Shown here piece after piece: positions 42,027-58,365 of a stretch of 64,000 bases of DNA. The position numbers and the translations under genes were made by a program. Position 1 is the stretch's first letter, and each line of letters starts with the position of its first letter. The DNA comes from a virus (taxonomy: Duplodnaviria; Heunggongvirae; Uroviricota; Caudoviricetes). The notes below the pieces were generated by a model. That model saw nothing but the letters and a program-made list of their open reading frames with translations, made no database searches and was not told the origin of the DNA. The DNA lies in IMG/VR virus record IMGVR_UViG_2827179085_000005, positions 64,001 through 128,000 of that record. One strand, 5' to 3'.

Positions 42027-43076
42027 ATTTACACCTCCTTTGGTAATATCAATTATTTACAACAATGATTGCTTTTATACTAATCCTAGTAATATTTTTT
42101 TAATTAATTTTAAAAGCAACACGAATAGCCAGAAATCCGTCGATTTCCAGCCAATTATCGGCTCCCCATGGGATGAAACCAGAGCAAATAACGAGGGTAT
42201 ACACCTCTGTTCGTGGCATTATGTATGAGCCTGTCGCGCAACAGCTAATGCTATTATCTAGTATATCCAACAGAAATTGATAGTATACATTCGGTAATAG
42301 ATTGCTCTGGAAGGACGTTTGGATAGCTTTATCGGAGATGATGTGGTTTTGCTACACGATAAGCGATGCTGGATCGTAATATTATCGCCAGAGAGACTAG
42401 GAATACCCTGTGAGCCGTTAGGGAGTTATATCGTATATTTGTGCTAGATTTACGAGAGAGCCTTATCGTGGCTACGAGAGCGTCCGTGGGTCGTAAATTG
42501 AAGTCGGAAGTGTGGGTGGGTGTGTACACTCATTGTGAAATGGAAATGATTTGCTTTCATCTGTAAACCATCCCCCGCCCTTCTGTCTATCCTTTTCACA
42601 TATTTTTAGTTATGGGGAAACGGACGGTAAAAAGTTATCAAGAAGAAAATTATTTGAATCGAAAAAAGTATTTTTGCCGTGTTCTAAAATGTTTCCTTAT
42701 TGCAACTTAGTTACCCTGTTTCAAAATAATTATTATCTATTTTAATATTTCTATCGCAAAATTCTTTTTCCTTCCTATCAAATAGTTTCCCAGATGCAAA
42801 ACTATTTGGATGAAGAAAAACTTTTTCGACTCGTATTATAATTAGTGTAGGCGTGAGGCTTGCTTACTACTTCCCATCAAAAACCAAACCACGACACCAC
42901 CAAAAACCCACCAACAACCAACGCAACGCGCTACCAGACGCAACAAAACGCCCTTTTCAGCGTGTTTTCCTTGTGTAAGTCCTATTGTCCACCTATTGCC
43001 CAAAAACGCCTTACAATCAAAATTCAAAAAAACAAAATTATTTTGCAAAAAGCGTGTTATTTTCTAAAATAATGCT

Positions 43077-43105
43077 GTACTTTCTTAGGCATGTATGGTA
43101 TATTT
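43077..43105 (+). promoter_or_regulatory. SigA-type extended -10 promoter overlapped by an operator motif
   Basis: TG-G-TATATT near 43097-43105; GTACTTTCTTAGGC (43077-90) covers the -35 region. Confidence 0.5.
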
Positions 43106-43158
43106 AATACATCGGAAGGGAACACAAAATACTAACCACTGAATGGGAGGAACTACCA

Positions 43159-43308
43159 ATGTCACTACAACAACAATTTGAAATGATCTACGCGCAACGC
43201 AAGCAAGCAGAAAAGGCGAACAACAAAAAACGCATCATCATGCACAACGTTATCCTTGACAAAGGAGAAAAGTCCAAGCTTTACAATAAGAATGTTTATG
43301 TAATGTAA
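43159..43308 (+). CDS. Small basic protein (49 aa)
   Basis: RBS GGGAGG; MSLQQQFEMIYAQRKQAEKANNKKRIIMHNVILDKGEKSKLYNKNVYVM. Confidence 0.6.
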   Translation: MSLQQQFEMIYAQRKQAEKANNKKRIIMHNVILDKGEKSKLYNKNVYVM

Positions 43309-43423
43309 TCAACGTGTGGGATTCTCTAGTCCACTTTTGTACAATCGTAACGAACACGAACGGAACGAAACAAACGCATTTGAGGGAATGCGAAAAACCA
43401 AACGGAAAAGGAGAAATAATATC

Positions 43424-44549
43424 ATGAATAAATTCAAATTGGCTCACGCTATCGCAAAAGTTTTGAAGGGCGACTATTCCGCACGTATGGCATACGCTTG
43501 GCAGATTATTAAGGCAGACCGCTTGCATGAAGTATCAGAACTGCTCGACGTTGAAACGCTCACGCCTAAAATGTATGTATCTGAATACCCATACGCGACA
43601 GCTAAAAAAGCTGACCAGATGCCTAAGAAAGTACGTATAAAATCAAAAACACAAAAAATCTAAGAAGGTTCAACCAATCGAAGAACCAGCGCAAAAAATC
43701 GTACATACCGCAATTCCTGAAAACCTTGCAACAGTGTTCACCGCTCAACAGTGCGCGGCAATCGATGAAATTATCACGAACTATGTATATGGCAAGATGG
43801 ACAAGAGAACAGGCAAACGTAACAATGGCGCGAATGAGCTAGAAGGGGAACACATGGACATGGCGCGTTTCCGCTATAATGACGGAATCGAAGCACTCAA
43901 AAATATCAAGGGTGCAACGTTCCCAATGTCCTACACAAACGCAAAAGGCGACGAAGTGGAGTATGATTATACGCCTTTCATGCAACTGCAAACAGCAATG
44001 GTTACTTACTTCCTACGCGACTATGTAAAAATGACTGTAAAGCGTTTCTTAGATATGGGCTTGAATTTCAAGCAATTAGAACAAGTACAAGCAATGGCAA
44101 GCATTGAAGCGAAACAAAGCTATATGATGGCTTCAAGCAATCGCGGGAATATTGTAGCGTTTGACATTGACGACATCATGGACGAATTTGTATTCGATTC
44201 TATGCGCCTAACTTTTAGCGAAACAATGTTCGATAGTGCAGATGATGCGGTTAAAGTATGTTTTATGAGACTTAAAAACGTTATGAGAGTTCAACTTCGT
44301 AAACTCCGCAATCAAACACTAGTTGTCACAGAGCAACAAATGTATGTGCAGGAGGAAGGAGTTTCACGCTCTACAGAAGAAGAAGCGTTACAAATGGCTA
44401 AGGAAATGGGAATTTTCAGTGATGCAGAAATGGAAATTATTCGCCTACGCCTTGAAGGGTTCAAAAAGGTTGAAATTGATAAGCAAGTGGGCAAACGTAC
44501 TGACCGCGATTTCAAGCGCATCGAAAAAGCATACAACGCCGCTGTATAA
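43424..44549 (+). CDS. Sigma70-family-like (SigH/ECF-like) factor with N-terminal extension, about 375 aa after two homopolymer repairs
   Basis: Region-2-like FDIDDIMDEFVFDSMRL...RLKNVMRVQLRKLR and region-4-like FSDAEMEIIRLRLEGFKKVEIDKQVG. The GTG at 43734 has no RBS; adding one A each at 43645-49 and 43653-58 fuses it to the RBS-led ORF at 43424. Confidence 0.55.
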
Positions 44550-44561
44550 GCGGATTAAATA

Positions 44562-44589
44562 GAGGAGGGCGCAAAAAGCGTCCTTCCTC
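44562..44589 (+). terminator. Hairpin after the sigma-like gene
   Basis: GAGGAGGGCGC/GCGTCCTTCCTC stem. Confidence 0.5.
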
Positions 44590-44660
44590 AGAAATAAAAA
44601 TTTCCTAGTGTGTGGTTCTCATAGACTTTTATACTAATACATATGAAGGAGGGAAAAGGC

Positions 44661-44792
44661 ATGAAACAAAAATTATTCGCATATATCGCGCAATTTTTCA
44701 AACACCAGCATACAGCACCAGAACGCCGCGAATATACGCCACAAGAACTATATGAAATGGACTTACTGGATTCAGCGGAAGGAATAGCATAG
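44661..44792 (+). CDS. Small hypothetical protein (43 aa)
   Basis: RBS GGAGGG after element copy 44610. Confidence 0.55.
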   Translation: MKQKLFAYIAQFFKHQHTAPERREYTPQELYEMDLLDSAEGIA

Positions 44793-44830
44793 GAAACGCA
44801 AAAAATAAACCATTATCGGAGGGCTAAAAC

Positions 44831-45184
44831 ATGAAAAAACTTATTACATCCATCATTATTGCAATCATCTTTTTCGTAGGGGCAGGGGTGACGAACGCGA
44901 ATGCAACCGATTTAAACACTTGTGAAATACAACTTCAAAAGCCTATTCATCATGCCGAAATTGTTATGACTACTGAAAAAGTAAAGAGCGTTTTCTATGA
45001 AAAAGGTTGGTACTACTTGGAGACATACGCTGATGACGAAGGCGGTACATGGGTTTTAGAAATTGGGAAAGAACCAAAAAGCGCGGCAAAACTAGACAAG
45101 CTGAAAAAGCAATATACAGGAAAGCTTGTAGATGTTCAATATACAGGTGATTATGAATATCTAGGATGGAACATCCACAAATGA
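44831..45184 (+). CDS. Secreted/exported hypothetical protein
   Basis: Sec-type signal peptide MKKLITSIIIAIIFFVGAGVTNANA; terminator hairpin at about 45187-45208. Confidence 0.65.
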   Translation: MKKLITSIIIAIIFFVGAGVTNANATDLNTCEIQLQKPIHHAEIVMTTEKVKSVFYEKGWYYLETYADDEGGTWVLEIGKEPKSAAKLDKLKKQYTGKLVDVQYTGDYEYLGWNIHK

Positions 45185-45317
45185 GAGAGGGGCGAAAGCC
45201 CTTCTTTTTGTTTGGCTTGAAAACGTCATGCAAAAATATTTTTATTTTGCGTGTGGTTTTTGTCTCAAACTGTACAAATACATATGAGGGACAAATCATA
45301 TAGAAAAGGTGAAAACG

Positions 45318-45557
45318 ATGGAGTTATTTTTTAGATGTTCATGCGGTAAATTCGAACAAGCAACGAACGCGAATTATGCAAGTACAGAAGACGCGAACAA
45401 GGAAGAAAATCCTTTATGTTGGGATTGTTTCGATGGGAGACAAGACGCGAAAGCATTCCATGAAAGCGGTGGAATTTTCCGCAACTTTGAAGACTGGATG
45501 GAGGACAAAGGCGCGACAATTATAGATGATAGTCATTATATCATACGCGAATATTAA
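45318..45557 (+). CDS. Hypothetical protein with CxC/CxxC
   Basis: RBS AAAGGTGA after element 45251. Confidence 0.6.
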   Translation: MELFFRCSCGKFEQATNANYASTEDANKEENPLCWDCFDGRQDAKAFHESGGIFRNFEDWMEDKGATIIDDSHYIIREY

Positions 45558-45637
45558 TTTTTTCAGTGCGTGGGATTCCGAAAAACTTTTGTACAAATAT
45601 AATCGAGAGACAATATAAACGGAAAAGGATGATAAAC

Positions 45638-45874
45638 ATGAAAACAGTTCAAACATTGGTAAACGTAAAGAAAGACACTAAGGCAGGCAATCATAGAGTT
45701 TCCATTTCACAAGGGAAAAGAGATTTTTATTACTATGCTACTGCAATTTGCAAGGTTGACGACACAAAAGGAACTTTTGTGATTGATTCAAGTTATGGCA
45801 CACAGTCCACAACTCGTGCATGTAACGCATACCGCAAACATTTTGTAGGGATTGGATACCGCGAAGCAAATTAA
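45638..45874 (+). CDS. Hypothetical protein
   Basis: RBS GGAAAAGGATGA after element 45570. Confidence 0.6.
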   Translation: MKTVQTLVNVKKDTKAGNHRVSISQGKRDFYYYATAICKVDDTKGTFVIDSSYGTQSTTRACNAYRKHFVGIGYREAN

Positions 45875-45956
45875 TTTCATATAGGCGTGTGGTTTCGCCA
45901 TGCGCCTGTACAATTATATATGAGGGACAAAAACAAACGGAAAAGGATGATTAGAC

Positions 45957-46208
45957 ATGGACAAAAAGACATTGATTGAGAAGTACAACAAAGGTGAAAT
46001 TAAGCCTATCGGGGTTACACATATCACGAACACAAGCGGTGTGGCAGTGTGTCATGTTGAACATGGTATCAATGATAAGGTTTTCGGATACATTACGATG
46101 GGCGAAACTAAACAATTCTTTTTCGTCACACTTAAATATTTGACTGAAAAAATTGTTTTCCAAGTTGGGAAAATGCGCTTTGACATAGGCGAATTTATGC
46201 GCGTTTAG
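45957..46208 (+). CDS. Hypothetical protein
   Basis: RBS after element 45887. Confidence 0.6.
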   Translation: MDKKTLIEKYNKGEIKPIGVTHITNTSGVAVCHVEHGINDKVFGYITMGETKQFFFVTLKYLTEKIVFQVGKMRFDIGEFMRV

Positions 46209-46348
46209 CTCCATAGGCGCGGTGTGAAGTGGGTGGGCGAATGCCTACCCACTTTTTAATTTCAAGCGTGAAAACATCCATCGAAATATTTTTGTTTCGG
46301 TGTGGGTTTTTGTTTTTGAATTGTACAAATAAATATGAGGTGATAATC

Positions 46349-46486
46349 ATGCGAAACTTTAAACATAAAGTTGACGTTTACTTTGACTTAGATGGAAATA
46401 TTGAAGGTCAATTCTTATATTATGGCGCAATTGGAACTATGGCGTTTTCGATGATTGTTGGAACGATTGGAGGGATTTTTTCATGA
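46349..46486 (+). CDS. Small membrane protein (45 aa)
   Basis: RBS GAGGTGA; C-terminal hydrophobic helix. Confidence 0.55.
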   Translation: MRNFKHKVDVYFDLDGNIEGQFLYYGAIGTMAFSMIVGTIGGIFS

Positions 46487-46656
46487 GCAACAAAGGGATT
46501 ACAAATGTAGGCAATGGATGGAAATGCACTTGTGGTATCCATAGAAACGCGTCAACGGAAGTTTGGCGCGATTGCGTATGTCGAATTGAACATACAAAAG
46601 AACAAGTCGAAGCGTCGAATATTCTATATTGGAGAAAGTTTTGGAATATCGTGTGA
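46483..46656 (+). CDS. Small Cys-containing protein (57 aa)
   Basis: RBS GGAGGG, ATGA overlap; its stop is the TGA of the next element's GTGTGA. Confidence 0.55.
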   Translation: MSNKGITNVGNGWKCTCGIHRNASTEVWRDCVCRIEHTKEQVEASNILYWRKFWNIV

Positions 46657-46712
46657 TTCTATAAAAGTTCTGTACAAATACATATGAGGGGAAAACGAAA
46701 GGGGAAATTAAA

Positions 46713-47092
46713 ATGGCAAAAATTTTAATCTTTGAAGGTGCAGGATGGGATGTTGCAGAACATAATGGCGTTGGGAATTGCCGAATCCGCACACGAATCA
46801 AAAATATAGATGGAGTTTCCATCTATCTGGAAATGAGCGGCACAAAGAAAAGAAATCGAAGTATTCCAAGTTCTTCGTTTTCAATGCTTACGTTAACCAT
46901 TGTCATGAAGAAGGCAAGGACAACGAAAGTGAGTTCCGCAGATTCCAATATGGAAGTTATGGCAGTTTCGAATACACGCAAGAAGCTATTTTGAAATTTG
47001 TAAACGAAAATCTTAATTGTGACTTCGAAGTCATGAAAGTTGTCAACGATGGTTCAATTCGTGTTCATAGTACAAAGGAAAATTTGTGTTAG
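46713..47092 (+). CDS. Hypothetical protein, about 126 aa after frameshift repair
   Basis: One extra A at 46848-51 joins MAKILIFEGAGW... to ...FEYTQEAILKFVNENLNCDF. Confidence 0.55.
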
Positions 47093-47145
47093 TTGTGTGA
47101 TTCGATTCAATTTTTGTACAAATAACATTGAAAGGCGGTGAAAGG

Positions 47146-47447
47146 ATGGTTGAGATTTTCGGGTTTACATAGCGACTCACATTGAGGATCACAAGGCTCT
47201 CGCAGGTGCGAACCTAGAAAGGGGAATGCGATATGTGCTAATTAACCTAGAGACGAAAGGGACAAGAACGATATTAAGGAGGGATGATATATATGATTGT
47301 CGAATAGAAATACATCACAAGACTACCAGCACAACGCGCGGTGTTGGTAGTCTCTTTTTACTAAGCACGAAAAAGGCATACAAAGAAATTTGTATATCTT
47401 TTTGGCGTTTAGTGTGGGATTTACTAACGCTTTTGTACAATACATAG
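47146..47447 (+). CDS. Possible hypothetical protein (needs a frameshift repair)
   Basis: RBS-led MVEIFGF joins ORF 47226..47447 if TTT at 47164-66 is TTTT; the ORF runs through a terminator-like hairpin (47321-53), so the 3' end is doubtful. Confidence 0.3.
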
Positions 47448-47479
47448 TGTGAGGGACACACGAAAAGGAGAAGATAAAC

Positions 47480-47836
47480 ATGCAAAAAGAATTAACATTC
47501 ACAAAACATACTCGTAAGGAAGCAGAAGCCAAAGGGCTTCCAGTATTCAATGGATGCAATCATTATGAAATTGATATGTCACATTTGAGAGGGCGTCATG
47601 AAGATGGGCATGAGGATTGGATGAATACAATTGTCGTGAAGCTTCCATTCGGAAATGCACTGACACTTTGCGTAATGCAAACAGGCGGTAATGAGGTATG
47701 TATAGATAGTGCATTCCATGGCGATAACCTCGATGAACATAGAGTATATGCAATGGGTGGCGGTCAAGAAAAAGATACAAATGTATACAACAAAAACATT
47801 TATGCGCTGATTGCAAAGGCGAAAGAAATTAAATAA
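47480..47836 (+). CDS. Hypothetical protein
   Basis: RBS AAAAGGAG after element 47414. Confidence 0.6.
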   Translation: MQKELTFTKHTRKEAEAKGLPVFNGCNHYEIDMSHLRGRHEDGHEDWMNTIVVKLPFGNALTLCVMQTGGNEVCIDSAFHGDNLDEHRVYAMGGGQEKDTNVYNKNIYALIAKAKEIK

Positions 47837-47918
47837 TAAATTTTTCGGGAGTGTGGGAAACCACACTCCTTTTGTACAACTACTATTGAGGGACAAAACA
47901 AGAAAGGGAATGGTGAAT

Positions 47919-48383
47919 ATGGGACGCGGTAATGCATGTGTTCATGGTGAATATGAGGGGCTTTACTATGTAGATTGGGACAACTTCCAATCCACATTTG
48001 AAGACGAAGAAGGGGAATATGTTGATTATGAACTTCAATACGAAGAGTGGAGAACTTCGCTAAAAACATTCGTCAGAGACTTCACACAGAAATATAAAAG
48101 CTTTTCCGAATGTGACGAATGGGTGAGCAATGGAGAAAGAGCAGTTATGGAAAGCACACTTTTCTATATTGTTGTCGAAGATAATGAATGGAGCATGGCT
48201 ATAAAACTGATTCAAAAGGAACAGGATTATTATAGCAGGGGTAACTTTAAAAATCTTCAAAAAGGTTTATATAAAAAATACCTTGAAGGCATGAAGAAAT
48301 GCCTGTTTAATCAGTTCGACGAGTTAGGAATATATGGCGGCGCATGGACAAGTGGCAGAATCCAAAAGAATCAAGCGGCATAA
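47919..48383 (+). CDS. Conserved phage hypothetical protein (MGRGN...EGLYYVD type)
   Basis: Start after element 47853; C-terminal YGGAWTSG. Confidence 0.6.
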   Translation: MGRGNACVHGEYEGLYYVDWDNFQSTFEDEEGEYVDYELQYEEWRTSLKTFVRDFTQKYKSFSECDEWVSNGERAVMESTLFYIVVEDNEWSMAIKLIQKEQDYYSRGNFKNLQKGLYKKYLEGMKKCLFNQFDELGIYGGAWTSGRIQKNQAA

Positions 48384-48467
48384 TTTTTCTTGGGGCGTGT
48401 GGAAGCACGCCCCTTTTGTACAACTATTATCGACAAACAAATTAAAACCGACAAGGGGATATGACAA

Positions 48468-48773
48468 ATGAACACAACTAAGACAAATAACGCAGGTAAA
48501 ACTTTTGAAGAGATTTTGAATGGACTTCTTGGCGACATGGAAAAGAAATTCGCAATGGCGATGGCGATAGAGCAAGCAAAAGAAAAGATGAACGAAGAAC
48601 TTCAACAAATGGGCGATATGGTCATGGGTTCTATAGAAGTGGAAGAATGCCCATGCGAACGCAATTGCGGAGCAGTCAAAGTATCGGCAGAATTTACAGC
48701 TATGACATTTACGCAAAAAGGAATTGAAGTAAAGGAAGGCAAGATTGAAAACATTCTGTCATTCAACGAATAG
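48468..48773 (+). CDS. Hypothetical coiled-coil protein
   Basis: After element 48397. Confidence 0.6.
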   Translation: MNTTKTNNAGKTFEEILNGLLGDMEKKFAMAMAIEQAKEKMNEELQQMGDMVMGSIEVEECPCERNCGAVKVSAEFTAMTFTQKGIEVKEGKIENILSFNE

Positions 48774-48782
48774 TACACAAGT

Positions 48783-48939
48783 CTAGCCAACTACGGTTGG
48801 CTAGTGAATCGAACGCATAAGTGGTTCCCTCAAACCTTTTCCTACCTTGTGCGCTCGATTCACTACACATGGCTCTGAAAATTAATGCTTGATAAGGTTG
48901 TCCCTCAAAACCTTTTCCTCCTTATTGAGCATTAATTTT
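48783..48939 (+). ncRNA. Candidate triple-hairpin small RNA with two homologous C/U-rich loops
   Basis: Hairpin with C-UACG-G loop (48783-804); two long hairpins (48802-65, 48878-939) with loops TTCCCTCAAACCTTTTCC and TTGTCCCTCAAAACCTTTTCCT; no ORF. Confidence 0.65.
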
Positions 48940-48996
48940 TGAAGCTGTGGGATTTCGCTTCATATTTGTACAACTATTATCAGGAGGGATTAACAT

Positions 48997-49566
48997 ATGA
49001 ATTATCTTAATATTCATGCAGTATCAGAAACCTACGAGCTGGTTGTTGATGCAATCGAAAGCGCGAAGATCGAAGACGCTGAACAAATTGAATGGCAAGA
49101 CGCTTATGTCATGCTTCATGATTCGATGCACGACAAAATGATTAGCGCATACCATTATGGTGAGCCAGCATACACGAAAGACTTGTTCCTGATATTCGGT
49201 GAAATGCTTTCGATAATGCACGATGGGAAGGCGCGAGAAGTCGAATACAATTCGATTATCAATTCCGTCAAAGAGCGTATTAAATTTCTTAATGGCGGCG
49301 AAATAATGGTATGGGTTAATGTTTACACAATTACACGCGAATATGGCGGTGCAGAAGAAGGCGGTTGGTATTATGATTGGAGAAAGTTATCAGACTCACA
49401 GCTTTGTAAATATGAAGATGCTGAAAATATTGAAGCATCTATGCGTGAAAAGTACGGAGAAGGCGAAGGAAACATTTCAAGCGTCCTTGGTGGTTACGAG
49501 ATTGATATATGTATCGAAGGTAGTCGCGGCGCGTCACGCTCGACATGCAGACCGCACTATGAATAA
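48997..49566 (+). CDS. Hypothetical phage protein (VNVY..TREYGGAEEGGWYY motif)
   Basis: RBS GGAGGG after element 48947. Confidence 0.6.
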   Translation: MNYLNIHAVSETYELVVDAIESAKIEDAEQIEWQDAYVMLHDSMHDKMISAYHYGEPAYTKDLFLIFGEMLSIMHDGKAREVEYNSIINSVKERIKFLNGGEIMVWVNVYTITREYGGAEEGGWYYDWRKLSDSQLCKYEDAENIEASMREKYGEGEGNISSVLGGYEIDICIEGSRGASRSTCRPHYE

Positions 49567-49635
49567 TTTTTACGATGTGTGTGATTTTGTGATAAATTTG
49601 TACAATTAATATCGACAAACAAATTTGGAGGATGA

Positions 49636-50004
49636 TTGAACATGAAACAAACAATCGTAGGGAAATTGGAAAATATCAAATCAAAAATCGATAACGAACT
49701 GATTAAGTGTGTCATTGAGGATGCACTTGAAAATAACGAAGACGCGCAATTATGGCTTGAAGATGTTCGTCAATATGGATGCCAAAGTGGTTCGGTGTCT
49801 GGTCTGATTTATCATGATGATACAAAAAAGTTTTTCAAGGAATACGCCGTTGAAATTGGCGAAGCATTCTTTGAATATAAAGAAGAGTTTGGTGGCTGTC
49901 CACCAATTAACGACAATATTAATTCGTTCGATTGGTTCGCTTGGTTCGGCTATGAGTGGGCAGTTTGCAAGGTGCTGGACAAGTTGGAAAACTACGAAGA
50001 ATAG
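49636..50004 (+). CDS. Conserved phage hypothetical protein (GCQSG.VSGLIY..DT motif)
   Basis: RBS GGAGG after element 49579. Confidence 0.65.
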   Translation: MNMKQTIVGKLENIKSKIDNELIKCVIEDALENNEDAQLWLEDVRQYGCQSGSVSGLIYHDDTKKFFKEYAVEIGEAFFEYKEEFGGCPPINDNINSFDWFAWFGYEWAVCKVLDKLENYEE

Positions 50005-50159
50005 GCATATATTTACACCAAAAGCCCATGACTATGATATAATGGTTGTGGGCTTTTGTATGAAATTAATCCATAAAATTGTTGTGAATTAATTTGATGC
50101 AAGTGTGTGAAAACATGATTGTTTTGTACAAATATAGATGATATAGATGAGGTGATAGA

Positions 50160-50381
50160 TTGGCGAAGCAAATAGATAGAGAAATTAAAATCACGATTTC
50201 TGAACGCGAAACTTATTCTTATGAAACAAAAGAAGAAGCTAGTCAACATGATATATTTATGATAGCGGCTGGATGGTTAAGAATAGATCAATACGAATAT
50301 GAAGGGACTTTTTATCAAATATTCACGAAAGGAATTGAATATGACCGCGATAAAAACAAAACCGAAAGTCGTTTCCTATAA
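50160..50381 (+). CDS. Hypothetical protein
   Basis: TTG start, RBS GAGGTGA after element 50105. Confidence 0.5.
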   Translation: MAKQIDREIKITISERETYSYETKEEASQHDIFMIAAGWLRIDQYEYEGTFYQIFTKGIEYDRDKNKTESRFL

Positions 50382-50520
50382 AGGTTTCAAAATTAAAGAG
50401 GTTGGCGATGAGTTCCATGTCTTCACGAAAGACGAATGGGCTATGCCAGCGGCGGTTCGTGTCGTCGAATGGGAAGCTGGAACCATGCAGGAAGCGAAAG
50501 ACTTTATAGACTCATATTAG
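50341..50520 (+). CDS. Small hypothetical protein
   Basis: RBS AAAGGA; MTAIKTKPKVVSYKGFKIKE... Confidence 0.5.
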   Translation: MTAIKTKPKVVSYKGFKIKEVGDEFHVFTKDEWAMPAAVRVVEWEAGTMQEAKDFIDSY

Positions 50521-50531
50521 GGAGTGAAATA

Positions 50532-50717
50532 ATGACAATCAATGAAAGAGCTATACAACACCTGAAAGAACTTGATGCTTTCAGTGTTCCAAACCCTATT
50601 GTCGCAAAGGCGTGCAAATGTCACGAACATTATGATTGTTGCGATTGTGGCGGAAATGAATGTGGATGCTCATATTGTTTTTCTTGTAACGCTTGTGAAG
50701 AATGTTTGAGTGAATAA
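50532..50717 (+). CDS. Cys-rich microprotein (61 aa)
   Basis: RBS GGGAGTG; 11 Cys near the C-terminus. Confidence 0.55.
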   Translation: MTINERAIQHLKELDAFSVPNPIVAKACKCHEHYDCCDCGGNECGCSYCFSCNACEECLSE

Positions 50718-50812
50718 AACCTTGATACAAGCGTGTGTTTTTACCTTGTATCTGTATAACTATATTGTGAATAGAAGTTTACTTTTATTGACTTGCATAA
50801 GAAGGTGATGAC

Positions 50813-50986
50813 TTGTCAAAAGAAGATGACCTGTACAAACAGGCAATGAAGCGAATTGCTGAACTTGTGGATGAAGTTTTGCAGACTTGCGATGATGTTG
50901 CAGATGAAAACCATTACGAAAGGGAATGGGTGTTGGAGCAATTTAGAAGTCAGTTCAACAAATCAAAGCGAAATCGGACTCAATAA
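50813..50986 (+). CDS. Small hypothetical protein (57 aa)
   Basis: TTG start, RBS AAGGTGA; MSKEDDLYKQAMKRIAELVDEVLQTCDDVADENHYEREWVLEQFR... Confidence 0.55.
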   Translation: MSKEDDLYKQAMKRIAELVDEVLQTCDDVADENHYEREWVLEQFRSQFNKSKRNRTQ

Positions 50987-50998
50987 AACCTTGAATTT

Positions 50999-51181
50999 AT
51001 GGAGGTAAAGTTAATGATTAAAGTAGTTTCAATAATTGAAAGTGTTATAAGTGGGTACGATGCTTATGTAGAAACAAAAGAAGGGAAACGCTATTATATT
51101 AATTGGGCAACAAAACCTACCGAAGATGAAGTAATAAGAGCATGGAAAGAAGATAAAAGATGGTTTACGCATATCAATTAA
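50999..51181 (+). CDS. Small hypothetical protein
   Basis: RBS GGAGGT lies before the internal MIKVV start. Confidence 0.5.
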   Translation: MEVKLMIKVVSIIESVISGYDAYVETKEGKRYYINWATKPTEDEVIRAWKEDKRWFTHIN

Positions 51182-51253
51182 TATTGATGAAAATCAATTA
51201 TTACGGGCTACAGAGATACAGCCCTCCTTTTAAATTGGATAGGAGAGATTAAA

Positions 51254-51451
51254 ATGAATTTATACTACGTTACCTATGAAACCTCAGACGACAGTAGCGG
51301 CTACCTACAAGAGTTTGTTGTTGCAAGTAGTGAATCAGGAGCCGAGGATGCAATTATCAATAAGTTTCGTGGAAGTGGATTGAGCAAAAACGATATAGTT
51401 GCAACATTGGTTGAGGTTGATGGATACACTATTTGTGTAATGCCTAAATAA
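51254..51451 (+). CDS. Small hypothetical protein
   Basis: RBS AGGAGAG. Confidence 0.55.
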   Translation: MNLYYVTYETSDDSSGYLQEFVVASSESGAEDAIINKFRGSGLSKNDIVATLVEVDGYTICVMPK

Positions 51452-51520
51452 AACTGGATTCAGTTGTGTGTTTTTAACTTACATCTGTACAACTATAGAT
51501 GTAAGCAATAAAACATATAA

Positions 51521-52015
51521 ATGAAAGTTGGTGCAGTAATGAAAACTAATAATGATAAAGTTATTGAAACATTTATTAACGGTATGACTGGATTTTATTC
51601 TAACAGAATAAAAATAGAAGATGCACCACATGCTACAAAATTAGTTTATAATATAGATGAAAAATATCCTTCTGGTTTTCGTGATATAGCAATCTATACA
51701 AAACATGACGGTATGGTACGGCTTACAGGACATCCACCATATCATCCAATACAACACAGATTATTGATGACGATTCGTAATGTTTCACCAGAAAAGCTTT
51801 ACCCTGATCCTGATTATCTATTAGGGTTCAGCGGTTGTTGCAAACAAACAGGGAATATATATAAATTCGAGTGTCCTAAGTGCAGATATGATTTGGAATT
51901 GGCTATAGCACATGAAAAGGGAATCACTTGGGATAAGGCTATTAATTGCAATTTGTGTGATTCGTTATTGTTTGTTGAATCAGCTTCTGATGAAATCAAT
52001 GTACATATTATCTGA
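51521..52015 (+). CDS. Hypothetical protein with C-terminal Zn ribbon
   Basis: CPKC...CNLC; after element 51466. Confidence 0.55.
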   Translation: MKVGAVMKTNNDKVIETFINGMTGFYSNRIKIEDAPHATKLVYNIDEKYPSGFRDIAIYTKHDGMVRLTGHPPYHPIQHRLLMTIRNVSPEKLYPDPDYLLGFSGCCKQTGNIYKFECPKCRYDLELAIAHEKGITWDKAINCNLCDSLLFVESASDEINVHII

Positions 52016-52066
52016 ATAAATTTTTACTCAATTGTGTGATTCACTCATACTTTTGTACAAATTAAT

Positions 52067-52717
52067 GTGAATGGACAGGTTGGAATGAAACTTACTGGTG
52101 CTGAAAGAAATGCTTTAAAGTTGGATTTTGGTTTTCCCTTGCGAGTGAAAGGCGAGAATATAGAAGTGAAAAAGTGCGAGTCTTGGACTGTGATCTATAC
52201 AGTTGAAGAAGGAAAGAAGATTGCCCAAACAATAATATCAAACAATAAAACGTACAAGGCTGGAACAAAGAGAGGTGAAGGCATAGCTTTTGAACGCCTT
52301 GACAATAAGGAAATACAAGAACAAAAGGAAGAGTTAGGTTCTATTATCAAATCGAGAATAGATGAAATAGGATCTAGTCTTAGAAAGCTTGAAAGCTCAA
52401 CGAATGTTCATAGCCCACAAATTCATGGTATAACTAGCGGCAATAAGAATTATACCATAGAAAATTTTTTAAGAGTGCTGAATGCTCTTGATTTGGAGAT
52501 TACAATTTCACAAAAACAGAAAAATAAGGAGGACATCATGAAAGTCTGGACAGTTAAATTTAAAAGCTTTAACAGGGAAGATTATTGCGAAACTGTATCG
52601 GGACGCAATGAAGAAGAAGCAAGAAAGAATGCCCTGAAAGCCGTTGTTCGCCATGATGATCGTGATAAAATTTATTGGATTAAAGAAGATATTTCTGCAA
52701 ATAAAAATTCAATCTAG
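52067..52717 (+). CDS. Protein with a central XRE-type HTH (possibly two genes)
   Basis: SLRKLESSTNVHSPQIHGITSGNKNYTIENFLRVLNALDLEITI; internal RBS GGAGG before MKVWTVKF. Confidence 0.55.
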   Translation: MNGQVGMKLTGAERNALKLDFGFPLRVKGENIEVKKCESWTVIYTVEEGKKIAQTIISNNKTYKAGTKRGEGIAFERLDNKEIQEQKEELGSIIKSRIDEIGSSLRKLESSTNVHSPQIHGITSGNKNYTIENFLRVLNALDLEITISQKQKNKEDIMKVWTVKFKSFNREDYCETVSGRNEEEARKNALKAVVRHDDRDKIYWIKEDISANKNSI

Positions 52718-52859
52718 CGTGTGACTCCATCTCACTTTTGTACAATAATTAGTGAGATGGTACTACATATAGTGACTCAAATGATAAAATATATGTTTGA
52801 GATACTATATGTAGTATACTTCGTTAAATAAAATGTGAGTTCAATTTAGAATTTAGGAA

Positions 52860-53134
52860 GTGTATGGGATGGAAATAGGGTATATGGACTTGATCGAATT
52901 AAAAGAGTCTTGTAATAATACTGATCGCGATATTATCAGTGCAAATATAAGGCGTATCGTAAAGTCTAAAAGGATAAAGTATTCTGAAATTGCCGAAGCG
53001 CTAAGCGTCAACATTCAAACTGTTTATTCTTATACAAAAAAAGTGGATACACAGTAAAGCCAGAACCATTTACATTACTGCTACTGTCAACATATTTACA
53101 TGTCGACGTAGCAGAATTTTTTTATAATGTGTGA
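52860..53134 (+). CDS. XRE-family HTH regulator (frameshift-repaired)
   Basis: One extra A at 53036-42 completes the HTH (YSEIAEALSVNIQTVYSYTKKSGYTVKPEPFTLLLLSTYLHVDVAEFF); its stop lies inside the next element. Confidence 0.65.
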
Positions 53135-53187
53135 TTTCGGATTACTTCTGTACAAATAATACTGACGACAACAAGGAGAAGATGAAA

Positions 53188-53913
53188 ATGACAAAAGATA
53201 ATCTTGGGAACCGCATGAAGGGATACGAGGATGTATCTCGATATTACCTAATGAAAAGAATGCCTATAATCCTACGAATTGATGGCAAAGCATTTCATAG
53301 CTATACAAAAGGATTAGAAAAACCATTTAGTTCTTTCCTGGCTAATTGCTTTTGGGAAACTTCGAAGTATGTTGCTAAAGAAATGATGGGTGTGAAAGTA
53401 GCATATCACCAAAGCGATGAAGTTTCTTTCCTATTGACAAACTATCACAAATTGACAACCGAATCATGGTTCGACAACAATCTACAAAAGATGGTTTCTG
53501 TTGCGGCTTCATTGTTCACATACAAATTCAACGAACTGACTCGCGGCATTATCGACAAGCCAGCACTATTCGACTGTCGAGCGTTTGTCCTACCTAAAGA
53601 AGAAGTAAACAACTATTTCATTTGGCGACAACAAGATGCAAGCAAGAACAGTATTTCGATGGTTGCACAAGCGAACTTCTCACACAAGTCGCTTCAAGGG
53701 TTGAATGGAAGTCAATTGCAGGAAAAGTTGTTCAGCGAAAAAGGAATCAACTGGAACGATCTTGAAACGTGGCAGAAACGCGGTGTATGTATTACAAAAA
53801 TTCAGTACAACAAAGAGACTGAACAAGGAATTGCACAGCGTACCAAGTGGGATGTTGACATGGAAATCCCTGTGTTTACACAGGATAGAAATTATATTGA
53901 AAAGTTTTTATAA
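53188..53913 (+). CDS. thg1: tRNA(His) guanylyltransferase Thg1-like protein
   Basis: RMKGYE, ILRIDGKAFH, QSDEVSF, FDCRAF, YFIWRQQD..KNSI motifs. Confidence 0.9.
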   Translation: MTKDNLGNRMKGYEDVSRYYLMKRMPIILRIDGKAFHSYTKGLEKPFSSFLANCFWETSKYVAKEMMGVKVAYHQSDEVSFLLTNYHKLTTESWFDNNLQKMVSVAASLFTYKFNELTRGIIDKPALFDCRAFVLPKEEVNNYFIWRQQDASKNSISMVAQANFSHKSLQGLNGSQLQEKLFSEKGINWNDLETWQKRGVCITKIQYNKETEQGIAQRTKWDVDMEIPVFTQDRNYIEKFL

Positions 53914-53962
53914 AAGCGTGAGGATTTTCGCCACTCTTGTACAATTATATATATGAGAGGAG

Positions 53963-54253
53963 GTGAAACACTTGGACGAAAGAGTTATCTTCCAAATGAT
54001 TGCCCAGATGTTGGATGCGAATAAAGATGAGTTTACTTATCACGCAATCAAGCGAATGAGAGAACGAAACATTGAAACATCTGATGTCTATGATATTCTC
54101 AGGAACCCTACAGAGGTAGATGACGAGCGAGAATCAGAAGACCAAATGTTCACAGGGAAATATAATTATAGAGTCAAGGGAAAATTTGAGTGGTCTGTTG
54201 TCATATCAATAGATTTTCCGAATAACATGTTCATCGTCACAGTAATTGATTAA
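53963..54253 (+). CDS. DUF4258-like (RelE/BrnT-fold) putative toxin
   Basis: FTYHAIKRMRERNI...VYDILRNP...IVTVI; paired with a Zn-finger gene. Confidence 0.65.
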   Translation: MKHLDERVIFQMIAQMLDANKDEFTYHAIKRMRERNIETSDVYDILRNPTEVDDERESEDQMFTGKYNYRVKGKFEWSVVISIDFPNNMFIVTVID

Positions 54254-54297
54254 TGTTGATGATTGTTATATAATGGGTGAAAGGAGCGTGATGTCTC

Positions 54298-54537
54298 TTG
54301 GCTATTGCAAAATGTGTAATATGTGGGTGTGAAGATGTTAGAGAAGAAGTTTTGCACATACCACTAAAGGTCAAATCAACTCACATGAAAAGTGATACAG
54401 TACCAGTCAATGGATCGAAATGTATGCAATGTGGCGAGCAATACATCAATGGGAAGACATTGCAAAAAATCGAACAAATAGAGAAGTCTATCGAAGAGAT
54501 GGAAAAATCATTTAATGAATTAGCTGTTGGAGCCTAG
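54298..54537 (+). CDS. YgiT-type zinc-finger protein (MqsA-like putative antitoxin)
   Basis: KCVICG...VPVNGSKCMQCGEQYI...LQKIE. Confidence 0.7.
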   Translation: MAIAKCVICGCEDVREEVLHIPLKVKSTHMKSDTVPVNGSKCMQCGEQYINGKTLQKIEQIEKSIEEMEKSFNELAVGA

Positions 54538-54633
54538 AAATAGGCTCCTTGCTTTATATTGAGGTGACTAATGAGTAGCGTGTGATTCTCTGGTGTTTCT
54601 GTACAACTATAAGTATAATAAGGAGGTTGTGAC

Positions 54634-54978
54634 ATGAAAGTAGTCGCAAAAATTAATGAAGAAAATATTATCAGTCTAAATATAGAACTTGAAGTTGGTA
54701 CACTAAATCAATTAACATTCTTAGGGAACTATGAAAATGTTCGTAAAGCTTTGACTGAATCCGTTTTAAATCAAGCTAAAAATGGTGACAGACAAGGCGT
54801 TGAGGATACTCTCGAAGAGATGTACAAGCTTCGCTTTTGGGAAATTCTTGGCGTTGAGCAAGGAGCAATTGAAATTCGCGATGGTAAACTGTTCGGCTTG
54901 AATAAGAAGGTTGAACTAGATGATTCTTTGCAAGCGTTGGTTGATAGTACAAAGGTTTTTAAAGAATTAAATGAGTAA
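54634..54978 (+). CDS. Hypothetical protein
   Basis: RBS AAGGAGG after element 54580. Confidence 0.6.
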   Translation: MKVVAKINEENIISLNIELEVGTLNQLTFLGNYENVRKALTESVLNQAKNGDRQGVEDTLEEMYKLRFWEILGVEQGAIEIRDGKLFGLNKKVELDDSLQALVDSTKVFKELNE

Positions 54979-55048
54979 TATGTTTTGAAAGCGTGTCGTC
55001 ATCTATTGATGTTGACACAACTTGAATACATATTATTGGAGGTACGTT

Positions 55049-55621
55049 ATGGGTAAATTACTATACTTGAACAAGCAAGATGAAGGAATTGCAAGATATA
55101 TGGATTCTGGTATCGACGCTTCCAAGCTACAAAAAGGCGTCGATTTTCATATTGCATCAATATTTCTAGTAGATGATAATTTTGAAGCTCATTCGCTAGG
55201 TGAATATATCGGAAAAAGTAGTAATGAATTGTTTCAAGGAGTCGAAAGCGGATATATTCAAGTTGCAAAAAAAATAGTTAGTGGTGTTACAGGGTTAATG
55301 GAAACACCATATAACAAAGGCGTTCCGTTTTATCGCGTAAAAGGTAATATTGACATCGACTTAGCGACTGATGTCGGATTGGGTGTTGTTCGATATCAAG
55401 GTGAATATTATCTGTATTCTCCAACTAGCGATGATGATCAGATGGATGCAATTATGGAAATGATTATGCTAAAAGTATATTTCCAGCTTATGAATCCAAA
55501 TGAAGTTGACCAGAAGCTTGCGGCATCATTCTCCAAGTTTCATAAAATGATATTAGTGAACATGACATCGAACGCACAGAAACATATCAACCGCTTAAAA
55601 GAAATTTTTGCTGGTGTGTGA
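55049..55621 (+). CDS. Hypothetical protein
   Basis: RBS GGAGGT; its stop is the TGA of element 55616. Confidence 0.6.
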   Translation: MGKLLYLNKQDEGIARYMDSGIDASKLQKGVDFHIASIFLVDDNFEAHSLGEYIGKSSNELFQGVESGYIQVAKKIVSGVTGLMETPYNKGVPFYRVKGNIDIDLATDVGLGVVRYQGEYYLYSPTSDDDQMDAIMEMIMLKVYFQLMNPNEVDQKLAASFSKFHKMILVNMTSNAQKHINRLKEIFAGV

Positions 55622-55661
55622 TTCATACACACTCCTGTACAATTATTTATGGGAGGTGTAA

Positions 55662-56117
55662 ATGTTGAGCGACGAAGAAGGATATGTTCGAGAGGAATGG
55701 GTATACGCTGGAATGCACGTTGGCAGTAAAGGTAAGAAGTCTTACGGTTGGGTGAATGTAAACGATCTGGAAGAAATCCACTGGTTCGACAAAAATCTCG
55801 TAACATCATCTGTAGGGAATATGTACTATGTGTATGTGAAGCATAAAGGTGAGGGTGCGCTTTCCGTAAGGACTAGTGGCGTAAATATGCCTGCATGGTT
55901 CGGAAGACTCGACAACAAGGAGAAGGTTAGAGAGTGGGCTATTCGAGACGAAGCCGCAAGACAGCAAGCGGCAACGAAGTCCATGAACACGAAGGCAAAC
56001 AAAGAAGCACCACTCGATGAAGAATTTGAAAAGATACATAGAATGTCGGCAAGACTAAACACAACTGAAAAGCTTGCATTGATTGCTAAGTTATCTGAAA
56101 TTATTTTAAGGGCGTGA
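55662..56117 (+). CDS. Hypothetical protein
   Basis: RBS GGAGGTG after element 55616. Confidence 0.6.
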   Translation: MLSDEEGYVREEWVYAGMHVGSKGKKSYGWVNVNDLEEIHWFDKNLVTSSVGNMYYVYVKHKGEGALSVRTSGVNMPAWFGRLDNKEKVREWAIRDEAARQQAATKSMNTKANKEAPLDEEFEKIHRMSARLNTTEKLALIAKLSEIILRA

Positions 56118-56123
56118 GTTGGT

Positions 56124-56321
56124 ATGATTATCGGCACAACGAAAAATGTTTTGGAGGAAGGAACTGATAGAGTTCTTCTAACAAAGGGTAGAGGTTATGG
56201 TGTAAAGAAGGATGGAGATACAATCACAATAGTTCATAATGATATTGGTGAGCCTATGGTCGTTTCGACAAATGGCGTTAGCAAAGAGTTTCGTGAAAAA
56301 TTTGTAGTATATGAAGGGTGA
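56124..56321 (+). CDS. Small hypothetical protein
   Basis: 65-aa ORF ending at the next element. Confidence 0.5.
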   Translation: MIIGTTKNVLEEGTDRVLLTKGRGYGVKKDGDTITIVHNDIGEPMVVSTNGVSKEFREKFVVYEG

Positions 56322-56370
56322 GCGTGGGGTTCTCTCACGCTCTTGTACAATTATATATGAGGTGACGGTG

Positions 56371-57049
56371 ATGAACTACAACAAAATAAACAAGATTATG
56401 CTTTCTAATGACGATGCAGTGAAGATTGTCGAATGGGATAGAGATAATCACAAACGGTTCTCTTCTATTGAATTTCCCCTGTCAGAAGGGGTATTGCTGG
56501 TGTCTGGATATGTTGAAATGTTCAATATGAATCTTACGACAGGTGTGTACTTCAAGATTGAATCTGATGGGGTTTCTTTTTCCATTCTTGATTGGGAGTC
56601 TAGGAAACAGCTTGCATCATATAAGATGGACGTGAGCATGGCTGAAACAGGGAAATTTTCTAACGTTGTTGTATATCAACAAGGAGTGACAGAGGAAATG
56701 TTGGAGAAGGATTTTTAAAAACCAAGCACACTTGGTTATGTCAACATTCCAGTACATGAACCATCATAAGCATGTAGTTGAATCAAAGACAGTGAGAACG
56801 TCTACGACTAAGAAAGCCAAGCATAAAAGCGGTGGCAAGAATCGAGTCGTTAAACTATCGAGTGTGGAGTACAGATTTAATTTTGCCAAAGAAAATACTG
56901 GCGAAAAAAGAGGATATGAAAGGAAAACAGAATCTTGGCATCAGAAAGGATTCTGGCGCTTTTATAAAAAGAGTGGCAAGTCTGTATGGATTGCTGAACA
57001 AATTAAGGGTAGCGGTAAGAATATTGAACCTAAGACATATAAGATGTAG
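56371..57049 (+). CDS. Conserved phage hypothetical protein, about 226 aa after two homopolymer repairs
   Basis: T5+1 and A5+1 at 56712-21 give DFLKNQAHLVMSTFQYMN; C-terminal W..KGFWR.YKKSGKSVWI....KG motif. Confidence 0.55.
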
Positions 57050-57197
57050 TTTCATCCCGAAGAACTTGTGCTACAATTAAGTATATGAACAGATATTCAT
57101 ATCTTCAATTGGGTTCAAGTTCTTTTTAATATGCATGGGAATTATAAAATGATTTGTACAACTATAAATGAGAACATATTCGAGAGGGGCAGATAAT

Positions 57198-58004
57198 ATG
57201 GCAGGACAATTGGAAAGAGTAATGTGGGGATTTGATCACTATATCAATGACAAGGCTCTTAAAGAGCAGTTTCAAGAGTTATATGCGAAGGTTGTAGAAG
57301 AGAACAAGAATAATGTAATCGCCTTCATTCCTGTTGGTCAAGTTGATTGTGATAAGCTTGATATCAGCAACTATAATTGGATTGAGGATTACGAAATTAA
57401 CTCTGGTACTCGTAAATATGAAGATGACGAGTTTGATACGGAAGTTGAATATATTGCTCATATTAAAACAAAAGCTGATGAGAAGTTCGGAAAATATGAA
57501 ATCAAAGAACAGCCAAATGATGATGAAGAAGATGACCATAGCACGATTCACGCAATTTATGATGACGAAGGCGAAGAGGTTGATTGGGAATACCTTGAAG
57601 GCGAAGCAAAGGAAACGATTGAACGATTGAAGCAAGATTGGATTGAGGAGCAGCCTGAATTTGAAGACCTTGAAATGGAATACCATGAAATTTACTGGAA
57701 CACTGTATGGCGGTTTAACAATCACTTAGATAGAGAAGTCGCTAACAAGATTGGTCTTGGTCATCTTGCAATGAATGAATCTGGCGATGAATACTTGTTC
57801 CTTTTAGGTTGTGGTATGGACTTGACTCCAAAGATTGTCGCATATCAAGCATTGACGCATGGCTATATCGATGAGTCATATTTGCGATACTTCCAAAGCG
57901 ATATAAGCTATACTAAACATGTTATGGGTCAAAGTGTTTGGAATGAAGTGATTGAAAAGCTTGATATTAAGAGATTTTTTGAAGAAGAAGGGTCTGGTGT
58001 GTGA
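57198..58004 (+). CDS. Acidic hypothetical protein
   Basis: After element 57135; ends in GTGTGA within a terminator hairpin (57993-58018). Confidence 0.6.
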   Translation: MAGQLERVMWGFDHYINDKALKEQFQELYAKVVEENKNNVIAFIPVGQVDCDKLDISNYNWIEDYEINSGTRKYEDDEFDTEVEYIAHIKTKADEKFGKYEIKEQPNDDEEDDHSTIHAIYDDEGEEVDWEYLEGEAKETIERLKQDWIEEQPEFEDLEMEYHEIYWNTVWRFNNHLDREVANKIGLGHLAMNESGDEYLFLLGCGMDLTPKIVAYQALTHGYIDESYLRYFQSDISYTKHVMGQSVWNEVIEKLDIKRFFEEEGSGV

Positions 58005-58365
58005 TATGACACATCAGATTTTTCTTTTGAAAATAACTAAAAGTTTCTTTAAACAATGTATACAGGGCAATTTTCTGTGCTATAATGTTTGTAGTAATTG
58101 CAAGGGGGTTGTAGCTTGCAAAAAGTATTAGAACGTATAGAGAACTTCTTAAATAGAATATGCGATACCCATCATAAGATATTAGGGTATCCGCTAAATA
58201 AGAATGTTTTTGTTGCATATGTTTGGCTCTTTATGATCGGAATATTTGTCGCATTAATTACTGGTGGAAAGTAGAAACCTAAGAAAGTTTTAGAAGATCG
58301 TGTGAATTTGCAGATAAGCTGTACAACTATAGACGAAATCGTAAATCGAAGGGAGAAAATAAATC

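Follow-up and report, generated by a model that had tools for sequence, protein, structure and literature searches.

The locus

The stretch of DNA analysed here (the window, 64,000 nucleotides (nt) in full) consists of bases 64001-128000 of a 141,141-bp contig, 38% G+C (IMG/VR record IMGVR_UViG_2827179085_000005), which belongs to a genome of 6.8 Mb in 25 contigs. The contig is a large temperate phage or phage-plasmid of Paenibacillus. The subject of this report is a gene on the plus strand whose product resembles sigma factors and which stands directly before an array of small genes, each preceded by a copy of the same bipartite element. The product is most likely a very divergent, phage-specific member of the sigma-70 family, with a two-domain core like that of the extracytoplasmic function (ECF) sigma factors and without sigma3. 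The gene, its domains and the array are laid out as follows:

43410-43413, plus strand: ribosome-binding site GGAG of the sigma-like gene, upstream of the start at 43424
43424..44549, plus strand: sigma-like gene, 375 codons and a stop when two missing As are counted (reads; protein record P0030; homolog alignments A1 and A2)
43645-43649 and 43653-43658, plus strand: two A-runs, each one A short in the assembly (read alignment)
43968..44333, plus strand: sigma domain-2-like region, residues 183-304, with FDIDDIMDE (2.2-like) and FMRLKNVMRVQLRK (2.3/2.4-like)
44358..44546, plus strand: sigma domain-4-like helix-turn-helix, residues 313-375
44610..58326, plus strand: array, 23 canonical elements, each before a small gene (AATTTT tract, GTGtG core, TGTACAAnTA 20 nt after the core)

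An intact gene of 375 codons

In the assembly as given the gene appears split, because one A is lacking from each of the two A-runs: a 79-codon open reading frame (ORF) with a good ribosome-binding site (43424-43663) overlaps a 302-codon open frame (43641-44549), the reading frame being interrupted at 43661. The sole callable start in the second, uncorrected frame is a GTG at 43734 without a ribosome-binding site, and the annotated product has 271 amino acids (aa). An earlier reading of the letters, made without database searches (the sequence-only reading), had proposed that two homopolymers need repair and that the protein then gains about 100 residues at its N terminus, and had named resequencing of 43640-43660 as one check. 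Both missing As were found: in raw reads of an independent Illumina run (X7) an additional A stands behind 43644 in 163/192 reads and behind 43652 in 173/181 (85-96% per site), and two independent Logan contig assemblies (X1 and X3) hold both. The corrected runs (A5 to A6, A6 to A7) join frame 2, from the start at 43424, to frame 0 and give a protein of 375 aa, 104 residues longer than the called product. The exact 375-aa protein is recorded from four contigs (P0030), and all homologs have both parts fused in a single protein. The tape-measure gene (window 6478-14607, minus strand) is present in the assembly as four ORFs that match consecutive parts of phrog_4211, and homopolymer errors are therefore probably general in this assembly.

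Sequence relation to sigma-70 factors

An exhaustive HMMER search gathered a family of 23 clusters at 50% identity, with members of 255-595 aa (a 1,542-aa repeat protein was excluded). The named members come from Paenibacillus alvei, P. agilis, P. lautus and Paenibacillus sp., and the remainder are metagenomic. The segments that the sequence-only reading had likened to sigma regions 2 and 4 lie where it had placed them: FDIDDIMDE at residues 247-255 and RLKNVMRVQLRK at 283-294 are region 2-like, FSDAEMEIIRLRLEGFKKVEI at 332-352 is region 4-like, and in profile alignment (hhalign) they fall in register with regions 2.2, 2.4 and 4 of ECF sigmas. When a 27-sequence family profile (A2) was aligned with 16 ECF sigmas of the host genome, the match (E 1.9e-5) ran through 105 collinear columns from region 2.2 into region 4: FDIDDIMDEFVFDSMRL was paired with the region 2.2 motif DAEDvvQetF, CFMRLKNVMRVQLRKLR with the region 2.3/2.4 motif tWlyRIa.N...d.lRk, and FSDAEMEIIRLRLEGFKKVEI with the start of region 4 (reversed-profile control, P 0.4 to 0.6). 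The hidden Markov model (HMM) built from A2, run over 401 Paenibacillaceae genomes, matched 17 chromosomal proteins of ~190 aa at E ~1e-7, and those of them that were checked are genuine sigma factors, above cut-off for Sigma70_r2 (36-39 bits), Sigma70_r4 (29) and TIGR02937 (63). Against the PDB, the profile matched SigH (E 0.018).

Searches by blastn and tblastn with three members against 50,697 phage records, and a search of PLSDB plasmids, gave no match. A member from a cultured phage, gp193 of Brevibacillus phage Sundance, was reached by the family HMM only (E 3.6e-13; hhalign 96%). It is annotated as hypothetical and has Sigma70_r2 as its top Pfam match (15 bits, the cut-off being 24). 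At 212 aa gp193 is of plain ECF size, which the window protein exceeds by ~180 N-terminal residues. A 303-aa chromosomal protein of another Paenibacillaceae genus (L042, G254:C3:481178-481678), which has the GxRxDR helix-turn-helix signature of the family and no Pfam or NCBIfam match, may be a further divergent family member outside a phage context.

Predicted structure

AlphaFold models of the full protein (predicted local distance difference test, pLDDT, 79) and of residues 96-313 (pLDDT 83) were compared with 48,161 PDB chains (VIA-align). The top matches of residues 313-375 are to sigma domain 4, led by Fusobacterium nucleatum SigH (3mzy; Z 7.4, root-mean-square deviation 2.3, 61 residues) and including SigD4 and SigF; those of residues 183-304 are to sigma domain 2, with SigR at Z 6.7 (78/78 residues) and RpoE at Z 6.6 to 6.9 (Z 6.6 over 84 residues for the domain-only model). 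In the domain-only search 10/48,161 chains reach Z 5, and the top nine are sigma2-type folds (eight ECF sigmas and the sigma-like domain of PhyR); the full model led to the same outcome. Sigma-70 entries also dominate the top of the Foldseek lists from PDB and AFDB, none being individually significant. No MotA entry is among the structural matches listed, and a shape search of the ESM Atlas returned matches that were all below a template-modelling (TM) score of 0.35.

The full model has no sigma3 between residues 300 and 318. The sequence-only reading had described a shortened recognition helix; the modelled helix (361-374) has normal length, and it is a turn that is ~3 residues shorter than in F. 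nucleatum SigH. Residues R359, D361 and R362 of the helix-turn-helix are nearly invariant across the family. The N-terminal part (residues 1-182) gave no informative match and is modelled as a small helical domain, a disordered Lys-rich linker and a helical module; these ~180 residues are family-specific, variable within the family and absent from Sundance gp193. A comparison with sigma2 and sigma4 folds had been suggested as a check, and it returned both: the sigma2-plus-sigma4 architecture is well supported and very likely correct, and the sigma4/helix-turn-helix part is near certain.

The array and its element

The canonical element joins an invariant G-T-G-n-G core to an invariant TGTACAA whose start lies precisely 20 nt after the core; nTA comes next, and GA further along. 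It can be read as two promoter boxes, GTGtG and, 16 nt on, a -10-like TAyAAn, held at one rigid spacing value. The pattern has 28 matches on the contig (overlapping ones counted), all at window positions 43316-58300, and 17 in the other 6.7 Mb; the elements are confined to the plus strand and, within the window, to the array. Many of them overlap hairpin-plus-T-run terminators. An AATTTT tract 9-14 nt upstream of the GTG core (e.g. 44596-44601) is kept by most of the 23 elements, and relatives have it too; it may be an UP-like element or bent DNA.

The host's own promoter class describes these elements poorly. SigA-type recognition requires a T at -7, and this T is present in 7/23 window copies (TACAAA 8, TACAAT 7, TACAAC 6, others 2) and in 0/20 copies of the related locus L004, where the hexamer is TATAAC in 19/20; nor do the array promoters have a TTGACA-like -35. 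Because the T at -7 is mostly or wholly absent, the array elements do not qualify as SigA promoters. Other readers were sought on the contig: no other sigma (PF04542) or beta-prime homolog was found, the SPbeta YonO protein as query found no homolog, and Pfam models gave no phage RNA polymerase among the ten largest ORFs outside the window. (A search for T7-type polymerase, PF00940, found nothing on the contig and is uninformative, since the controls matched nowhere either.) Host core polymerase together with the sigma-like protein is the simplest reader of the array promoters.

Relatives and phage Sundance

The surroundings of nine homologs (28-65% identity) were taken for comparison, with Sundance in addition. 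Wherever flanking DNA exists (L002-L006, L008, L052, L054 and Sundance) the homolog heads a same-strand array of small genes, as the sequence-only reading had said of the window gene. The bipartite element co-occurs with the homolog in 10 genomes. Its upstream box is constant (GTGTG a/t TTT), and its downstream box is lineage-specific: TGTAyAAC, ATATAACTAT, ATATAGCTAT, ATATAGTAT, TGATAAGTA, TTTATAACTAT or CATAACTAT. The protein follows the same pattern, in that the invariant GTGTG box parallels the nearly invariant helix-turn-helix residues and the variable -10-like box parallels a more variable region 2.4-like helix.

In Sundance a single gene separates gp193 from the terminal repeat, and gp193 is followed by ~35 small genes, in an array that abuts the repeat. 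The phage has 15 copies of GTGNG-N14-17-TTACATTA, all on the gp193 strand and only in the small-gene block; the genome paper reported no motif for the phage (PMC4909266). An array-type promoter also lies within the terminal repeat, upstream of the SigA-type promoter of gp194/gp193 (KT151959.1 51-79 and 133998-134026).

Synteny extends beyond the array. RecD2, integrase-like and actin-like partition genes, which precede the gene, are neighbours shared among the fetched loci wherever flanking DNA exists; on the contig itself there are genes for a RecD2 helicase, an integrase-like protein, an actin-like partition protein, a Thg1-like protein, a GmrSD nuclease and a homolog of an MrpR-like repressor, and the minus strand has tail, portal and terminase genes. 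Sundance is also the nearest cultured relative of the contig, at 73% identity across a 678-aa protein (G000:C4:130578-132611, outside the window; phrog_1735, no Pfam match; Sundance gp148). That protein has homologs in >500 phage genomes (with Salmonella, Klebsiella, Caulobacter and Bacillus among the many hosts) and is widespread in lytic phages; it is not evidently a polymerase.

The region upstream of the gene

The features that surround the sigma-like gene are these:

43043..43070, plus strand: candidate SigA-type promoter TTGCAA-16-TAAAAT, upstream of the operator (consensus scan, 9/12 matches; a consensus match only)
43077..43090, minus strand: operator copy 1, reading GCCTAAGAAAGTAC in minus-strand and GTACTTTCTTAGGC in plus-strand orientation, overlapping the -35/spacer of the extended -10 promoter
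43096..43104, plus strand: extended -10 TGgTATATT of a SigA-type promoter that would serve the 49-aa ORF and the sigma-like gene (read from the sequence)
43159..43308, plus strand: 49-aa basic ORF (MSLQQQFEMIY...) with a strong ribosome-binding site, between the promoter and the sigma-like gene
43314..43345, plus strand: variant array-type element, GTGTGGG and TGTACAAT, set 2 nt further apart than in the canonical copies
43377..43395, plus strand: 5' leader hairpin with GAGGG in the loop (RNAfold)
43621..43634, plus strand: operator copy 2, inside the gene at the Lys-rich linker, inverted relative to copy 1
44563..44589, plus strand: hairpin, a possible terminator, just 3' of the stop codon (read from the letters; the terminator scan did not call the candidate)

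Twelve sites in the window match the operator (GCCNAAGAAAGTAC) at <=1 mismatch, against 0.02 expected. All three claims of the sequence-only reading on these features hold: an operator overlaps the -35 of a SigA-type promoter, a second and inverted operator lies inside the gene, and a variant array element, at 43316, precedes it. The operator-plus-promoter layout recurs before the homologs in L002, L003, L005, L054 and Sundance. Equivalents of the extended -10 are TGATACAAT in L003, TGCTATTAT in L005 and TGGTATATT in L054, and the Sundance unit reads TTGACT-[GTACTTTATTTGG...]-TATCAT. L003 also has an intragenic operator copy in the equivalent place (at 10255), which suggests that the paired operators act by looping or roadblock.

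In the variant element TGTACAA (43338) lies 22 nt from the GTG core (43316), against 20 nt in the 23 canonical copies. The P. agilis homolog (L002, 9724 to 9746) has an upstream element with the identical +2 spacing, and because the window and this relative have it in common, the spacing looks selected; the variant element is perhaps a weak feedback promoter. Four distant relatives (L006, L008, L052 and L053) have a canonical array-type promoter directly before the sigma-like gene, which supports autoregulation in the family and makes autoregulation of the gene plausible. Just upstream of that promoter in L006 (~270-290) and L008 (~9915-9935) lies a perfect 18-bp palindrome, ATGTTTCACGTGAAACAT, probably the operator of a different repressor.

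The 49-aa ORF has no match in Pfam or PHROG and belongs to a family of basic proteins of 44-51 aa that start MSLQ(E/Q)xFExxYxQ and always adjoin the sigma-like gene, on one side or the other depending on the genome. In Sundance the homolog is gp194, upstream of the sigma-like gene (L061 13650-13784, minus strand); in L002 (11145-11300) and L003 (11116-11271) homologs of 51 aa lie just downstream. The MSLQ mini-protein is a candidate partner of the sigma-like protein, either a co-factor or an anti-sigma factor. The leader hairpin has counterparts in L004, L005 and L054 with other stem sequences and the same GAGGG loop (the stems across the window and relatives are CGCATT/AATGCG, GGCAT/ATGCC, GTGGTT/AACCAC and CCCAT/ATGGG); differing stems around one loop suggest a conserved RNA element. 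The motif TGAGGGA is also found downstream of many array promoters.

How the protein is best read

Given a sigma2-like and a sigma4-like domain in the order of an ECF sigma, and an array-specific two-box element, the gene product probably acts as the sigma factor for the array promoters. Several results weigh against this conclusion. First, no Pfam, NCBIfam or PHROG model scores above threshold on P0030 and its relatives, and P0030, P0011 and P0023 all miss the cut-offs of the curated sigma models (Pfam Sigma70_r2/r4 and TIGR02937); the missed cut-offs reflect the divergence of the family and have no bearing on function. Second, the sigma2 part aligned alone with ECF sigmas keeps its register with weak significance (P 0.008), structural Z scores of 5-7 are rated by the tool as middling for helical proteins, and Foldseek against the PDB, with full and domain models, returned nothing at E < 0.001. 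Third, the array boxes are unlike the AAC (-35) and CGT (-10) of ECF promoters and resemble no known ECF consensus, and the -10-like box of Sundance, TACATT, could be read by SigA. Finally, no simple residue-to-base code links region 2.4-like residues to the -10-like box: P0021 has the RIKN...VQL helix in common with the window protein, yet a TATAGT-type box.

The alternative that survives best is one that the sequence-only reading had itself raised: a DNA-binding activator of MotA or LuxR type, whose helix-turn-helix would bind GTGTG and recruit SigA holoenzyme to TAyAAn as a weak -10. The C-terminal domain does fit LuxR/GerE-type helix-turn-helix proteins about as well as sigma4 (DesR Z 7.0, DosR Z 6.6), GerE is a weak match for one family member, the Sundance box fits TAnnnT, and seven of the 23 window copies are TACAAT. 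T4 MotA with AsiA is comparable, in that a phage factor takes over the role of -35 recognition by binding a repeated box that precedes a -10-like element. However, MotA is without a sigma2-like domain and needs AsiA and host sigma-70, whereas the protein here has, in the correct order before its helix-turn-helix, a sigma2-like domain with region 2.2/2.4-like motifs, a domain that response-regulator and MotA-type activators do not have. The T at -7 is missing from 16/23 window copies and from 20/20 in L004, and the rigid spacing is that of promoters read by a single sigma. With a sigma2-like domain present and a -10-like box mostly without the T at -7, an activator is disfavoured and looks unlikely.

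Less probable again is that the protein resembles a sigma but takes no part in directing transcription, being a decoy or regulator (a PhyR-type sigma mimic, an anti-sigma partner, a repressor or a partition factor). The array elements would in that case be read by another factor or serve mainly as terminators and cassette boundaries. The sigma-like domain of PhyR is among the structural matches (Z 5.5), many array elements overlap terminators, the ~180-residue N-terminal extension has no known function, and the gene adjoins partition and replication genes. Yet the recognition residues of the helix-turn-helix are nearly invariant, as expected for DNA binding; gene and element co-occur in every lineage examined, with the gene itself under an array-type promoter in four; and neither a second sigma candidate nor an RNA polymerase turned up on the contig. 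The interrupted frame and the 271-aa annotation had seemed to point to a frameshifted pseudogene or to programmed frameshifting within the A-runs. Both readings are ruled out by the reads and the two contig sets, which restore one frame, unless the strain that was sequenced is unlike all three read sets; the intact protein is recorded from four contigs, and the fragmented tape-measure gene points to general assembly errors.

Proposed cascade

The best-supported and most likely model is therefore a sigma cascade, from repressor to phage sigma to array, that switches on a block of about two dozen genes when the phage awakens. Host SigA polymerase would transcribe the MSLQ ORF and the sigma-like gene from the extended -10 promoter. 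In the lysogen, the phage repressor would block this promoter through the operator over it and the inverted operator 540 bp downstream in the gene. Upon induction or infection, newly made sigma would bind host core polymerase and steer it to the ~24 array promoters, the sigma4-like domain reading the -35-like GTGTG and the sigma2-like domain the -10-like TAyAAn 16 nt downstream. It would probably also act on the weaker +2-spacing copy before its own gene, giving positive feedback. The gene structure, the homology and fold, the shared synteny, the co-occurrence of gene and element and the placing of the operators are results of the analysis; core binding, promoter recognition and array transcription, the identity of the repressor, the feedback loop and the timing of expression are inferred. 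For promoter-specific initiation the evidence is indirect, namely the co-occurrence of the gene with a bipartite element of fixed spacing in 10 genomes.

A broader proposal is more tentative: a self-contained sigma/promoter system may define a clade of Sundance-like temperate phages of Bacillales with genomes of 135-155 kb. Taken jointly, and as a whole rather doubtful, it would comprise an orthogonal sigma whose promoters are each joined to the terminator of the gene before, making of the tiny accessory genes insulated, exchangeable promoter-gene-terminator cassettes; a fixed -35 box alongside a -10 box that changes in step with the sigma2 domain; a further layer of control, as anti-sigma or co-factor, built in through the N-terminal extension and the MSLQ mini-protein; and RNA-level control added by the GAGGG leader hairpin.

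Comparison with known systems

Group 4 (ECF) sigmas such as Streptomyces coelicolor SigR, Bartonella quintana RpoE and Mycobacterium tuberculosis SigH/SigL, together with F. nucleatum SigH (3mzy), share with the window protein, as modelled, a sigma2 and sigma4 core without sigma3; the motif order (2.2-like D-D-I-x-N/D-E-L, 2.3/2.4-like F-x-R-I-x-N...R, region 4 helix-turn-helix); rigid spacing of promoter boxes; and, in some lineages, probable autoregulation. In contrast to them, the family falls below every curated sigma threshold, has ~180 extra N-terminal residues in its Paenibacillus members, a conserved SYxNASSNxG loop inserted in sigma2 and a shorter helix-turn-helix turn, is associated with GTGTG/TAyAAn boxes instead of AAC/CGT, and has no evident membrane anti-sigma partner.

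Phage sigmas that retarget host polymerase include Bacillus phage SPO1 gp28 (middle) and gp34 (late) and gp36 of phiEco32/7-11. PMC13401047 and PMC4331800 treat SPO1 and 7-11. On the proposed model the window gene is like these in encoding a small divergent sigma, expressed early under a SigA promoter, that would switch host polymerase to a phage-specific promoter class repeated many times in one block. It differs in having no detectable sequence relation to them (no tblastn match in the 50,697 phage records), in belonging to a temperate, repressor-controlled phage, and in a regulon of tiny single-gene cassettes rather than replication or structural operons. The host-takeover module of SPO1 is a block in the terminal repeat, with ~24 small early genes under strong promoters of their own. 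It is comparable in placing dozens of tiny genes at the genome end, each with its own promoter and ribosome-binding site, but the SPO1 block is served by host SigA promoters, whereas the array here stands under a separate promoter class and is headed by a sigma-like gene dedicated to it.

In SPbeta, MrpR (YopR) is the master repressor and acts with SPBRE sites (PMC10516654). The contig resembles it in encoding an MrpR-like protein (60260-61285) and in repeating a short asymmetric operator in the promoters of a ~140-kb genome. It is unlike SPbeta in two respects: tblastn found no SPbeta homolog of the sigma-like gene, and the late genes of SPbeta use the YonO polymerase, for which the YonO query gave no match here.

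Significance

Because phage sigma cascades are well known, the novelty here lies in a family and a promoter class that had gone unrecognised; the principle itself is not new. The analysis gives a candidate function to a family annotated only as hypothetical, gp193 of the cultured phage Sundance included, and defines a regulon of ~24 promoters from sequence alone. It also shows that the deposited assembly carries gene-breaking homopolymer errors. For the poorly studied large temperate phages and phage-plasmids of Paenibacillus and Brevibacillus, which are soil and beehive bacteria, it proposes a testable three-tier switch of repressor, sigma and accessory-gene array. If the proposal is true, the lineage-specific sigma/promoter pairs, with their fixed -35 and differing -10 boxes, would be natural orthogonal expression parts for Bacillales and a clean case in which to study how sigma2 specificity evolves.

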